Shown here: piece by piece, positions 561 to 7,958 of the stretch
Position numbering within the stretch: the first letter of the stretch is position 1
Layout: each line of letters starts with the position of its first letter
DNA from: a virus
Taxonomy: Duplodnaviria > Heunggongvirae > Uroviricota > Caudoviricetes
DNA length: 7,958 nt
Strand: one strand, 5' to 3'
Virus record (IMG/VR): IMGVR_UViG_2579778613_000007
Location: 1 to 7,958 of that record
Program-made: the position numbers and the translations under genes
The notes under the pieces: generated by a model
The model's input: the letters and a program-made list of their open reading frames with translations, nothing else
Databases searched by the model: none
Told to the model about the DNA's origin: nothing

Positions 561-855
561 ACCCGCTTTCACGAAGATCATGTGTAGAAGGCAGCAGCGT
601 AACTATCACTGATGAATTCAGGATAGCCAGTGGCTACGGCTCAGTTTGGGTTGTGGCGGCCGGAATCGAACCGGCTTCCATCGGTGCGCTGCCGATTGCA
701 GTACGCGCGGCGGTCAGCTACATGACTAGTATTTTCACTGTCGCCTATCTGCTAGCTCGCCATTGAGCTTCACCACAACGATAAGAGCACTGCGCGGCAC
801 CTTTCACCAATTCCGCGAGGTCTGCGGGTTCAATGCTCTTACCTGTTGCACAGAT

Positions 856-1751: not shown

Positions 1752-1936
1752 GGCCTTCCCCTTTTGCCCTGTTTGACCATCAGGACGCCGTTAACTATTA
1801 CGTGACGCTCGCCTTTGCTGTCTCGGTTGTACTTGAGCACTGTTCCTCTTGCGCAGGAAAGCATCCTCGCCACTTCGGTCTGATTTCCTCGTGTCTGGAT
1901 AAGAAGCTCTGGTATCGTTTGAATTGTGGCGTTCAT
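1748..1936 (-). CDS. ninH: NinH-like small DNA-binding protein
   Basis: 62-aa ORF MNATIQTIPELLIQTRGNQTEVARMLSCARGTVLKYNRDSKGERHVIVNGVLMVKQGKRGRP. Shares the GNQTEVAR..C.RGTV.KY core with lambda NinH. Sits directly upstream of Q; ATGA overlaps with both neighbours. Confidence 0.8.
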   Translation of the reverse strand: MNATIQTIPELLIQTRGNQTEVARMLSCARGTVLKYNRDSKGERHVIVNGVLMVKQGKRGRP

Positions 1937-2295
1937 GCGTTCTCCAGTTCGGTGATTTTTATTCCAAGCCTTCCGCCTGGTGCTTTCACACCACGAATTA
2001 CGCGAATGTCATCGAATTGCTCGTCGTCTTCCGCAAATCCGGCGTGGATAAGTGAGTCGAGTAAACCTTTCAGGATGTTATCGAGGTCGCGGCGGCGGGA
2101 GTCTGGAACGTCTGCGATTACTTTGATGCGGAGTCGTGATTTGGTGAAAATGTCTAACTTGAGTTGGCGGATGATTTTCTGAACGTCTTTTCGGTATTTC
2201 TGGCCTTTATCGCTGATGTGGTATTGGCTTCCCCGTCTTCGCCAGTAGGTATTCACCGACGGCGGGTATGGAAGCACAAACTGATATTCGTTCAT
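1933..2295 (-). CDS. rusA: RusA-family Holliday junction resolvase
   Basis: 120-aa ORF MNEYQFVLPYPPSVNTYWRRRG...DVPDSRRRDLDNILKGLLDSL...GGRLGIKITELENA with the RusA catalytic acidic motif (RRRDLDN). Strong SD GGAGGG 8 nt upstream of the ATG at 2295. Confidence 0.9.
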   Translation of the reverse strand: MNEYQFVLPYPPSVNTYWRRRGSQYHISDKGQKYRKDVQKIIRQLKLDIFTKSRLRIKVIADVPDSRRRDLDNILKGLLDSLIHAGFAEDDEQFDDIRVIRGVKAPGGRLGIKITELENA

Positions 2296-2708
2296 GGCTT
2301 AATCTTTCCCTCCTTCAGCAGTATCGCCTGGCTGAATACGACAAAGAGTGCGCGGGATTGCCACATCGAGTATCAGCAAGGAGAGAATATCAATCATCGG
2401 AACGCGGCAGAGAACGGTGTAACGCAGCCAAAAAGCGGTTCATTCAGAGCAACCCATGGAAAAGAAAAGCCCACATCATCGTGGGTAATTTTTTGCGCGA
2501 CGGTAAGCTAATCCGACCACCACAATGTGAGTGCTGCGGATCAGAATGTAAACCACAGGCGCACCACTGCGACTACAGCAAACCAACCGATGTGATGTGG
2601 CTCTGCAAGTCATGTCATGTCGAGTGGCACAAACATAACAAACCTATCTACCCAGAAGAGGAACCAGTAACTCTCCCCTTCCCTCGTCACGCTATTCACG
2701 CAATTTAA
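2268..2708 (+). CDS. HNH-like (His-Me finger) nuclease; start codon uncertain
   Basis: C-terminal motif CECCGSECKPQAHHCDYSKPTDVMWLCKSCHVEWHKH fits the HNH pattern CxxCG...HH...WLCxxCHxxxH. The stop TAA overlaps the SD of the next gene. The ATG at 2268 has no good SD and overlaps the rusA start on the opposite strand by 28 nt; the true start may be internal (for example TTG at 2358). Confidence 0.55.
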   Translation: MEAQTDIRSWLNLSLLQQYRLAEYDKECAGLPHRVSARREYQSSERGRERCNAAKKRFIQSNPWKRKAHIIVGNFLRDGKLIRPPQCECCGSECKPQAHHCDYSKPTDVMWLCKSCHVEWHKHNKPIYPEEEPVTLPFPRHAIHAI

Positions 2709-5542: not shown

Positions 5543-5819
5543 TCTGCAACTGGCAGTGAACGGCGAATACTTCGACCAGATGAAGCGGGGCGAGAAAACG
5601 GAAGAGTATCGCCTGTGTAATGACTACTGGAATAAGCGAATTATGTTCCGGGAGTATGACCGCCTGATTATCACAAAGGGATATCCGAAGCGCGACGATT
5701 CCAGTCGCAGAATTGATGTTCCGTATGGTGGATATGAAATCAAGACAATCACACATCCGCACTTCGGCGATAAACCGGTAAAGGTGTTCGCGATAAAGGT
5801 GAATATCGGCAATGAATAA
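5535..5819 (+). CDS. ASCH/PUA-like small protein (94 aa)
   Basis: MANLQLAVNGEYFDQMKRGEKTEEYRL... The G-x-K-T-x-E-x-R signature near the N-terminus and the size fit an ASCH-type fold. AGGAGG 6 nt upstream of the ATG; overlaps the DUF551-like gene stop by 8 nt. Confidence 0.5.
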   Translation: MANLQLAVNGEYFDQMKRGEKTEEYRLCNDYWNKRIMFREYDRLIITKGYPKRDDSSRRIDVPYGGYEIKTITHPHFGDKPVKVFAIKVNIGNE

Positions 5820-5822
5820 CAT

Positions 5823-5847
5823 CCTCGCACTCGCGGGGATTTCTTTT
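5823..5847 (+). terminator. Rho-independent terminator (first of a tandem pair)
   Basis: Stem CCTCGC-actc-GCGGGG (one G-U pair) followed by ATTTCTTTT, 4 nt after the ASCH-like stop codon. Confidence 0.55.
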
Positions 5848-5852
5848 ATCTG

Positions 5853-5877
5853 AACTCGCTACGGCGAGTTTTGTTTT
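5853..5877 (+). terminator. Rho-independent terminator (second of a tandem pair)
   Basis: Stem AACTCGC-tacg-GCGAGTT followed by TTGTTTT. Confidence 0.6.
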
Positions 5878-5890
5878 ATGGAGACAAGAA

Positions 5891-6235
5891 ATGTCAGATT
5901 TGGCTATGAAGATTTTGAAATGGCAATCGACTGGCGATGTCGGCATCAGTAGCGCAACTCTTGCCTCAATCGCATGTGGACTGAAAAAGAATATCTATGG
6001 TCATCACTTCGGCGCTCCACATGATGCAGCCGATTTCCGGCGATGCGTTGCACTTGTTGAGCAGATTCCAGAAATCAGAGATTCATTCGACAAGGTTGCA
6101 AAGCGCGTTCCGGCATTCAAAGGAATCCTCAACGAATGGGATTCACTCGTTGCTCTGTTGAAGTCTGAAATGAAGACGTACGGGAACAAAGCACCAGAGA
6201 CTTACAGAAGAATCAGCGAGCTACGCAAGGACTAA
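5891..6235 (+). CDS. Hypothetical protein (114 aa), moron-like gene flanked by terminators
   Basis: ATG at 5891 with GGAG 7 nt upstream. Product MSDLAMKILKWQSTGDVGISSATLASIACGLKKNIYGHHFGAPHDAADFRRCVALVEQIPEIRD... has no domain I recognise. Terminators lie on both sides. Confidence 0.6.
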   Translation: MSDLAMKILKWQSTGDVGISSATLASIACGLKKNIYGHHFGAPHDAADFRRCVALVEQIPEIRDSFDKVAKRVPAFKGILNEWDSLVALLKSEMKTYGNKAPETYRRISELRKD

Positions 6236-6292
6236 CCCGCCTCACACTCGATGAGGCATTTTCATTTATCAAGATATCCAGACCTACCATCG

Positions 6293-6313
6293 CCGCATCA
6301 ATGCGGTTTTTTT
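6293..6313 (+). terminator. Rho-independent terminator
   Basis: Stem CCGCA-tcaa-TGCGG followed by TTTTTTT, 58 nt after the stop of the 114-aa gene. Confidence 0.65.
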
Positions 6314-6358
6314 ATTGCCTGATTTGCAGGTTCGATTCCCTATTCGGAGATAGCACTC

Positions 6359-6559
6359 ATGCAACACGAACTACAACCTGATTCACTGGTTGATTTGAAA
6401 TTCATCATGGCCGATACTGGCTTCGGTAAAACCTTCATCTACGACCGGATTAAGTCCGGCGACCTGCCAAAAGCCAAAGTTATCCACGGACGAGCAAGAT
6501 GGTTATATCGTGACCATTGTGAGTTCAAAAATAAGCTCTTAAGTCGCGCCAATGGGTAA
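6359..6559 (+). CDS. AlpA/Xis-family excisionase-like DNA-binding protein
   Basis: 66-aa ORF MQHELQPDSLVDLKFIMADTGFGKTFIYDRIKSGDLPKAKVIHGRARWLYRDHCEF... Shows the AlpA-type winged-helix pattern (I..TG.GKT.IY..I..G..P...VI.GRA.W). GGAG 9 nt upstream of the ATG. Confidence 0.8.
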   Translation: MQHELQPDSLVDLKFIMADTGFGKTFIYDRIKSGDLPKAKVIHGRARWLYRDHCEFKNKLLSRANG

Positions 6560-6609
6560 AATAGCGGGTAAAATATTTTTCACATATAAAAAATACCATT
6601 CCAATCAAT

Positions 6610-6641
6610 CCCCTGCCGCTTCAAGTAGATGTCTGCAGGGG
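6610..6641. repeat. Inverted repeat CCCCTGC - 18 nt - GCAGGGG in the ORF-free tract
   Basis: Perfect 7 bp inverted repeat, preceded by an AT-rich stretch (6572-6598). Function unknown. Confidence 0.3.
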
Positions 6642-7035
6642 ACACCAGATACCCTTCAAACGAAATCTACCTTCACCCCGTAAAAGATGGGTTTGGCAGC
6701 ACACTTGCCTTATATCTACTCATTTTTACTGCAACAGGTTGAAATCTCAGCACTGTCAGAAAGCGCTGATGACTAAACAGCCCTGGGCCGGGCGATGTAA
6801 CCATCACACAGAATCCTGATAGCGAAATATGGCGTGACTCGATACTTCACTCCGCAATGCATTCCTTGATGAATTCGCAGGACCGTGATACACGGGACAG
6901 GTCACTGAATGACGACAATGTCCTGGAAATCAGCGAACCGCGCATCTGAAGTACATTTGAGCGACTGTACCAGAACATGAATGAGGCGTTTGGATTAGGC
7001 GATTATTAGCAGGGCTAAGCATTTTACTATTATTA

Positions 7036-7079
7036 TTTTCCGGTTGAGGGATATAGAGCTATCGACAACAACCGGAAAA
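7036..7079. repeat. Inverted repeat TTTTCCGGTTG - 22 nt - CAACCGGAAAA immediately 3' of the permease gene; possible bidirectional terminator or boundary hairpin
   Basis: Perfect 11 bp inverted repeat 10 nt downstream of the permease stop (7089-7091 on the minus strand). A/T tracts lie inside the stem rather than after it, so it is not a classical intrinsic terminator. Confidence 0.35.
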
Positions 7080-7088
7080 AGTTTACGT

Positions 7089-7958
7089 CTATATTGCTGA
7101 AGGTACAGGCGTTTCCATAACTATTTGCTCGCGTTTTTTACTCAAGAAGAAAATGCCAAATAGCAACATCAGGCAGACAATACCCGAAATTGCGAAGAAA
7201 ACTGTCTGGTAGCCTGCGTGGTCAAAGAGTATCCCAGTCGGCGTTGAAAGCAGCACAATCCCAAGCGAACTGGCAATTTGAAAACCAATCAGAAAGATCG
7301 TCGACGACAGGCGCTTATCAAAATTTGCCACGCTGTATTTGAAGACGGATATGACACAAAGTGGAACCTCAATAGCATGTAACAGCTTCACTAATGAAAT
7401 AATCCAGGGGTTAACGAACAGCGCGCAGGAAAGGATACGCAACGCCATAATCACAACACCGATAAGTAATGCATTTTTTGGCCCTACCCGATTCACAAAG
7501 AAAGGAATAATCGCCATGCATAGCGCTTCGAGTACCACCTGGAATGAGTTGAGATAACCATACAGGCGCGTTCCTACATCGTGTGATTCGAATAAACCTG
7601 CATAAAAGACAGGAAAAAGTTGTTGATCAAAAATGTTATAGAAAGACCACGTCCCCACAATAAATATGACGAAAACCCAGAAGTTTCGATCCTTGAAAAC
7701 TGCGATAAAATCCTCTTTTTTTACCCCTCCCGCATCCGCCGCTACGCACTGGTGATCCTTATCTTTAAAACACATGTTGATCATCATAAATACAGCGCCA
7801 AATAGCGAGACCAACCAGAAGTTGATATGGGGACTGATACTAAAAAATATGCCGGCAAAGAACGCGCCAATAGCATAGCCAAAAGATCCCCAGGCGCGCG
7901 CTGTTCCATATTCGAAATGAAAATTTCGCGCCATTTTTTCGGTGAAGCTGTCAAGCAA
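7089..7958 (-). CDS. LacY-family oligosaccharide:H+ symporter (MFS), possibly a CscB-like sucrose permease; partial, 5' end beyond the window end
   Basis: The 289-aa C-terminal portion aligns by eye with LacY: EKMARNFHFEYGTARAWG vs EKVSRRSNFEFGRARMFG, DQQLFPVFY vs DQQFANFF, PKNALLIGVVIMALRI vs GKNALLLAGTIMSVRI, LHAIEVP vs LHMFEVP (LacY H322/E325 region). Multiple hydrophobic TM segments. AT-rich codon usage unlike the phage part. Confidence 0.9.
   Translation of the reverse strand: MLDSFTEKMARNFHFEYGTARAWGSFGYAIGAFFAGIFFSISPHINFWLVSLFGAVFMMINMCFKDKDHQCVAADAGGVKKEDFIAVFKDRNFWVFVIFIVGTWSFYNIFDQQLFPVFYAGLFESHDVGTRLYGYLNSFQVVLEALCMAIIPFFVNRVGPKNALLIGVVIMALRILSCALFVNPWIISLVKLLHAIEVPLCVISVFKYSVANFDKRLSSTIFLIGFQIASSLGIVLLSTPTGILFDHAGYQTVFFAISGIVCLMLLFGIFFLSKKREQIVMETPVPSAI

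Follow-up and report, generated by a model that had tools for sequence, protein, structure and literature searches.

The right end of an argW prophage in sucrose-positive Escherichia coli is very probably an intact attR of the KplE1/HK620 type

Site-specific recombination at the tRNA gene argW has been studied with the prophage KplE1 (CPS-53) of E. coli K-12, which has the order argW-intS ... torI-attR. The genes intS and torI are the first and the last genes of KplE1, a layout that is common to phages integrating at argW (PMC3509656, PMC2951348), and the two are transcribed independently (PMC2951348, PMC3509656). TorI is the characterised recombination directionality factor (RDF) of KplE1/CPS-53 and has the same sequence (100% identity) as HkaC of phage HK620 and gp18 of phage Sf6 (PMC3509656). 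Excision dependent on TorI, IntS and IHF was shown for K-12 and HK620 substrates (PMC2951348, PMC3509656), and the 10-kb KplE1 remnant of K-12 still excises (PMC2951348). In K-12 the copy number of KplE1 rises when Rho is inhibited with bicyclomycin (PMC11551753, citing Menouni 2013). The core was published as a sequence of 16 nt, CTGCAGGGGACACCAT, the published arm-type sites of the P' arm have TAAA in common, the five TorI sites on attL have the core GTTCG/GATCG/GTCCG, and the promoter PtorI was described as non-characterised (PMC2951348).

In the curated records of the free phages HK620 and Sf6 (Lederbergvirus) the order is hkaC or gene 18 (= torI), a small ORF, the attP core and, about 250 bp downstream, int. 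As attP is located between torI and int, integration cuts between them and the two genes come to lie at opposite ends of the prophage. As in this family, the integrase of phage lambda is a heterobivalent tyrosine integrase that has arm-type and core-type sites, the RDF is a winged-helix protein, and IHF is used (PMC2951348). In contrast, lambda attP lies outside int-xis, so that the two genes stay together at one prophage end under shared pL control, whereas in the KplE1 type, with attP between them, they become separated and are transcribed independently. With such a split layout in the family, the lack of an integrase gene beside torI is expected and is no sign of decay.

The DNA studied here, a stretch of 7958 bp referred to as the window, contains an excisionase-like gene at 6359-6559, which is followed by non-coding DNA and a permease gene. 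A first-pass annotation started from the premise that an excisionase gene adjoins its integrase gene, and read this region as the probable degraded end of a prophage whose integrase gene and att site had been deleted or degraded, or whose excision depended on an integrase encoded elsewhere. That premise fails here, the split layout being a published hallmark of the family (PMC2951348, PMC3509656). We consider it very probable that a P22/HK620-like lambdoid prophage with a KplE1/CPS-53-type module resides in argW of a sucrose-positive (csc+) E. coli and that the region is its right junction (attR), in intact form. An intact attR of the KplE1/HK620 type is an ordinary arrangement that has already been described.

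The ORF at 6359-6559 (+) had been called correctly. Its 66 aa product is identical in all 66 positions to the 'Tor inhibition protein' of PDB entry 1Z4H, the ORF bears the name torI in E. coli genome annotations, and its Shine-Dalgarno sequence GGAG is at 6346-6349. Direct protein comparison also gave 100% identity with HkaC (HK620) and gp18 (Sf6), and a first search of viral contigs returned identical TorI only. The Pfam scan of TorI yielded a single match, HTH_17, with 16.9 bits against a cutoff of 27, which is below the gathering threshold; the assignment as RDF (excisionase) of the KplE1/HK620/Sf6 module was therefore based on identity to TorI and not on Pfam. The label 'AlpA/Xis family' is thus appropriate at the level of fold and function, it is not borne out by Pfam, and the protein is exactly TorI.

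Two intrinsic terminators, detected by terminator scan and folding, occupy 6239-6314 (+) (stems 6239-6257 and 6292-6307, the second with a T run after it). They close the upstream early-left operon just before torI, and the records of HK022 and phage 434 have a tL4 terminator annotated in the counterpart of this stretch. Taking into account that two intrinsic terminators precede torI and that the pL/immunity region is deleted (see below), torI is probably silent here; if this is true, the prophage is stabilised although its recombination end is intact. A small ORF at 6552-6683 (+), homologous to hkaB of HK620 and gene 17 of Sf6, starts within the 3' end of torI and crosses the core into host DNA, so its C-terminus varies with the state of integration; it probably does not represent a real gene.

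As had been reported, the tract between torI and the permease gene (6560-7088) contains no ORF of at least 60 aa on either strand; the largest have 43-44 aa, and there are 7-11 stops per frame. The placement of the core, the limits of phage and host homology and a four-way alignment of att sites divide these 529 bp into 73 bp of P arm, a 15-bp core and 441 bp of argW-cscB spacer. A search with the published core found CTGCAGGGGACACCA at 6633-6647 (+), followed by a G. This attR core, the strand-exchange site, is the 3' terminus of argW, a tRNA-Arg(CCU) gene. Homology to free phages (HZ41, IME10) stops exactly at 6647, and host homology, in records with an intact tRNA-Arg gene before the csc genes, begins at 6633 and runs with 100% identity through 7088. 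In the four-way alignment of attR, attL, attP and attB, the window attR corresponds to the left arm of attP, the core and the DNA after argW, and the attL of the relative PI6 corresponds to argW, the core and the right arm of attP. This is the end of a prophage, as the first-pass annotation had it, with phage homology ending at 6647; the att site, however, is neither deleted nor degraded, the core and the P arm being present and colinear with the attP of free phages.

The phage-derived P arm of attR (6560-6632, +; GC 0.34) was delimited by its colinearity with the attP sites of HZ41, HK620 and Sf6. A direct-repeat search revealed tandem GGGTAAAATA repeats at 6554-6563 and 6566-6575 (+), the first overlapping the torI stop codon, which are candidate IntS arm-type sites of the P arm. 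They coincide with the attP repeat_region of the HK620 record and are invariant across 20 diverged modules. The GenBank features of HK620 and Sf6 (attP repeats and attP core) map onto 6553-6575 and 6633-6648. Compared with the K-12-type sequence, P arm plus core differ at 4 of 94 positions, none of them in the repeats, in the arms of the inverted repeat described below or in the core. The strict IHF consensus was searched for in the P arm and not found, and an Rfam scan of 5800-7200 gave no relevant match. A 4-7-4 inverted repeat, TGTC-TGCAGGG-GACA (6630-6644), lies within and beside the block of identity; from its geometry it could be the layout of core site, 7-bp overlap and core site that is typical of tyrosine integrases.

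The locus thus shows what distinguishes a KplE1/HK620-type module, namely a TorI RDF, an argW core at the boundary, a P arm with repeats and an empty-site host flank. The type also includes, beside argW at the other prophage end, an intS gene whose promoter overlaps attL. As regards the marks of a degraded or orphan end, the core is not truncated, the arm sites are present and the tract holds no integrase pseudogene. An integrase gene adjoining the RDF gene, as in lambda, is absent from the window and is not expected in this family. With KplE1 the prophage shares the identical TorI, the core (15 of 16 nt), the P-arm layout, the argW locus, torI as the last gene, the lack of a cI module and the state of a defective remnant. 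The two differ in the host flank, which is dsdC in KplE1 and a csc (sucrose) type spacer in the window, and because of this csc-type flank the block of identity has 15 nt and not 16. They also differ in the prophage body, which in the window is a larger P22/HK620-like mosaic with an internal deletion of its own, known here from its right end only. In strain J6, torI and the P arm match at 100% but the flank is of the dsdC type. HK620 and Sf6 have, besides the 100% identical RDF, a DNA identity of 95-96% over the stretch that begins upstream of torI and extends to the core, and their annotated attP repeats and core map one-to-one; unlike the window, these are free functional phage genomes in which attP is unsplit and the RDF gene is followed 250 bp downstream by int.

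The host side of the junction, 6648-7088, is the ordinary chromosomal argW-cscB spacer, with 100% identity to the DNA directly after intact argW. argW is followed directly by the spacer in 1471 genomes. For the comparison with the empty site a synthetic junction (end of yfdC, argW and spacer) was used. Of 5426 complete E. coli genomes, 1415 contain this junction without interruption, with identities of up to 100%, which means that the predicted excision product exists in nature; the direct repeat defining the insertion is the 15-nt core. The following gene at 7089-7958 (-) is the 3' part of cscB, coding for a sucrose (oligosaccharide:H+) symporter (Pfam LacY_symp, E 7e-133). In relatives it is annotated as 'oligosaccharide MFS transporter' or cscB and is followed by cscK, cscA, cscR, dsdX' and dsdA. 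Its description as a host-type permease gene of the LacY family was right, the gene being chromosomal; the different base composition that was also attributed to it amounts to a weak contrast (GC 0.434, against 0.478 in the prophage part; 0.454 in the spacer).

The spacer of csc+ E. coli also carries a relic of a DUF4942 gene, a pseudogene of about 40 N-terminal codons at 6791-6992 (+), on the host side of attR. It was recognised by Pfam (match at nt 6818-6940, E 1.7e-4, 21.8 bits, below the 25-bit cutoff) and by 72-76% DNA identity to intact DUF4942 genes, and it is called by PGAP in PI6 and WP7. In its intact form the gene stands last in CP4-44-like islands (context seen in strain C9), which are tRNA-associated. 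The likeness to integrative islands of the CP4-44/CP4-57 type is confined to this relic: apart from the N-terminal codons the window contains no other island gene, integrase or att repeat of such an element. The relic hints at an older island at the argW hotspot and is unrelated to the torI prophage.

Integrase sequences were searched for in several ways. With IntS and an unrelated argW-associated integrase as queries, tblastn of the tract yielded noise only (best E 0.084 over 22 aa), tblastn found nothing integrase-like anywhere in the 7958 bp, and Pfam and NCBIfam scans of all stop-free segments detected no integrase; the integrase fragments that translated searches of the tract might have uncovered are not there. 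The earlier statement that there is no integrase is thus correct for the window, but not as a general statement, the window ending inside the prophage on the left side. For this reason the far end was judged from relatives. E. coli W, WP7-S17-ESBL-01 and PI6, which have the same torI-spacer-cscB junction, carry yfdC, the tRNA-Arg gene argW and intS at the far end, and the torI-attR-csc junction is common to 372 genomes. By analogy with these relatives we infer that intS and attL are present at the far end of the prophage, beside argW. The suggestion that the integrase is encoded elsewhere was thus essentially correct, the family IntS belonging to the other end of the same prophage. Judged from its sequence, the attR junction should be competent for excision. 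In some csc+ genomes (loci L002 and L050, the latter from strain 219) a different integrase gene was seen directly 5' of argW in opposite orientation, so that argW is flanked on its other side by a second, unrelated type of integrative element.

The prophage is degraded in its interior. By match to the WP7 prophage (locus L013), window positions 1801-2330 correspond to L013 8563-9092, on the Q-ninH-rusA side, and positions 2326-2900 to L013 20001-20575, which is ssb-exonuclease intergenic DNA. The deletion joint at 2326-2330, with a 5-bp microhomology (GCCTG), fuses the region upstream of rusA to this intergenic DNA, and about 10.9 kb have been removed: the rest of the nin region, the replication genes, cII, cro, the repressor gene, early-left genes around ral/kil, a Rad52-type recombinase gene and ssb. 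The chimeric ORF of 146 aa across the joint (2268-2708) was found nowhere on record by exact look-up, and a 33-mer over the joint was absent from genomes, viral contigs and metagenome contigs. The prophage is therefore defective through this internal deletion and not at its attR end; the expression 'degraded prophage end' is justified as to the degradation but not as to the end, where torI and attR are intact. The 266-aa DUF551 protein of the prophage had no exact match on record, and its Q protein is very widespread. Between the holin and Q genes, at 648-706 (-), there is a 3' fragment resembling a tmRNA or tRNA, with the T-arm GCCGGTTCGATTCCGGC and an acceptor-like end. Rfam matched it to tmRNA with E 4e-6, its 20 bits falling short of the cutoff of 47, and ARAGORN called no gene; it is possibly a decayed phage tRNA or the remnant of an old attachment site.

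Two perfect inverted repeats had been reported in the tract, and both were confirmed (6609-6616/6635-6642 and 7036-7046/7069-7079). The first, TCCCCTGC-N18-GCAGGGGA (6609-6642; repeat search and folding), has perfect 8-nt arms, the right one in the core, and an 18-nt loop, and folds at -16.9 kcal/mol (z -2.6 relative to shuffled sequence). It was followed through 66 distinct P arms (loci L001-L238) of E. coli, Serratia, Citrobacter, Pantoea, Erwinia, Edwardsiella, Rouxiella and others. A fixed 18-nt spacing between the 7-bp arms CCCCTGC/GCAGGGG is kept across this set and pairing is 7/7 in most, whereas among E. coli prophages the left arm is followed by 5 hypervariable nt. Compensatory double changes occurred in two lineages (TCCCTGC/GCAGGGA in the Edwardsiella group, CCCCTAC/GTAGGGG in Rouxiella). 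Pairing was found in 91% of cells compared with 40-59% for slid controls; the covariation score was reached by 5 of 500 shuffles and the number of double changes by 21 of 500, so the support from covariation is modest. The first inverted repeat is a real, conserved element of attP/attR. The second, at 7036-7079 (-), is a hairpin located 10 nt after the cscB stop codon, with perfect 11-nt arms (11-bp stem), a 22-nt loop and no U tract (-17.3 kcal/mol, z -4.0 relative to shuffled sequence). The host DNA around it does not differ between genomes that have the prophage and those that lack it, and the hairpin is probably a 3'-end or termination hairpin of cscB. Of the proposal that the repeats are remnants of recombination or termination sites, what holds is that the first belongs to the recombination site; it is, however, conserved and no remnant, and the second is a host hairpin after cscB.

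These data bear on several other readings of the region. One of them is that the 530-bp tract once held an integrase gene and an att site, whose deletion or decay then fixed the element in the chromosome. This would agree with the lack of an integrase in the window, with the ORF-free tract and with the decayed gene fragment inside it. The fragment, however, is on the host side of the core and derives from DUF4942, not from an integrase; host spacer, unchanged in genomes without a prophage at argW, makes up 441 of the 529 bp; and int is never on the torI side (attR) in the KplE1/HK620-type family (three relatives; PMC2951348). With a core and a P arm colinear with a functional phage attP, this reading is extremely improbable, and the att alignment and the empty-site comparison refute it. 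The idea that permease gene and spacer are phage cargo (a moron), with the true prophage end beyond cscB, has practically nothing left to commend it. The GC content of cscB is slightly under the prophage average, but the order argW-spacer-cscB-cscK-cscA-cscR occurs without a prophage in 1415 genomes, phage homology does not extend beyond the core, and no second copy of the core was found to the right of 6647 in relatives. The empty-site comparison thus refutes the cargo status of the permease gene too.

The other two readings leave attR itself intact. Since about 10.9 kb have already been lost internally, further decay at the far end is possible, and torI and attR could be orphans in a genome that has lost intS, attL or both, so that excision no longer takes place; the far end is beyond the window, and in the relative PI6 decay is heavy and includes IS insertions. 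We regard such a loss as quite unlikely, because argW-intS is kept in all three relatives examined, the decayed PI6 included, intS at a coverage of at least 80% is found in 1862 genomes compared with 1405 genomes for torI, and the K-12 remnant is still able to excise. The reading that the first inverted repeat is mainly an RNA hairpin, forming the 3' end or terminator of the torI transcript, is compatible with an intact attR. Its folding energy and the pairing kept by two compensatory double changes would suit this role. No U tract follows 6609-6642, however, the fixed spacing combined with a hypervariable loop fits a protein-binding geometry at least as well, and the right arm, being tRNA sequence, is under constraint in any case, with covariation that is modest and a double-change count that 21 of 500 shuffles also reach. 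An RNA function as the main one therefore seems rather unlikely. The preferred reading remains that of an intact attR with intS and attL at the far end.

A further element lies upstream of torI. The sequence TTGCAGGTTCGATTCC at 6324-6339 (+), 30 nt upstream of the torI ATG, is identical in 16 of 16 nt to the T-arm of argW and contains GTTCG at 6330-6334; a 'promoter: phage integration' that the HK620 record predicts overlaps it. Among 59 distinct upstream regions, drawn from many genera, 32 have the 11-mer GGTTCGATTCC at 27-43 nt ahead of the xis ATG, and Erwinia-type phages carry it as a tandem duplicate; GTTCG is retained in variants such as AGTTCGATTTCC, and the sequences further upstream are unrelated. 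A promoter scan showed no sigma-70 promoter at the element. Taking into account that GTTCG is the published core of TorI sites, that the element is position-locked and that PtorI is non-characterised, a TorI operator before torI is a reasonable hypothesis. On these sequence comparisons it is conceivable, if doubtful, that the GGTTCGATTCC element, which matches the argW T-loop exactly, is a sixth, autoregulatory TorI operator on the torI promoter or leader and, separately, that CCCCTGC-N18-GCAGGGG is a required attP element co-evolving with the host tRNA.

Three other interpretations of the upstream element were rejected. A scar of insertion into a longer tRNA-like attP does not agree with an element that is position-locked and conserved, has unrelated flanks and keeps GTTCG, not tRNA identity, in its variants. 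A cII site (TTGC repeats), as predicted in the HK620 record, was discarded because the second TTGC is not conserved in relatives, and a conserved RNA hairpin around the T-loop-like element because the flanking bases, by inspection, lack consistent pairing.

The envisaged recombination cycle would begin with a free phage in which torI, the small ORF, attP and int follow one another in that order. IntS would recombine the attP core of 15-16 nt with the identical 3' end of argW, and this would split the module: at attL, argW would have the P' arm and intS beside it, and the phage DNA at attR would end with torI and the P arm. For excision, TorI would act on the GTTCG-type sites of attL and IntS on the arm-type GGGTAAAA repeats and the cores, the DNA being bent by IHF. 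Recombination of attL with attR within the core would then release the circle and restore yfdC-argW-spacer-cscB.

The finding is chiefly a correction. Where attP separates xis and int, attR normally shows an excisionase gene that has no integrase gene beside it and is followed by non-coding DNA, and to score such an attR as decay is an error that concerns a large family of tRNA-integrating prophages. For annotation, the base-level boundary at 6633-6647 fixes the end of the prophage exactly. The control of torI expression is an acknowledged open question in KplE1. Two smaller leads are the upstream GTTCG element and the inverted repeat covarying with the tRNA-derived core. If GGTTCGATTCC is a TorI operator, a further in-phase TorI site could be the T-loop of argW on attL, and the excision switch of a widespread prophage family would carry negative feedback.
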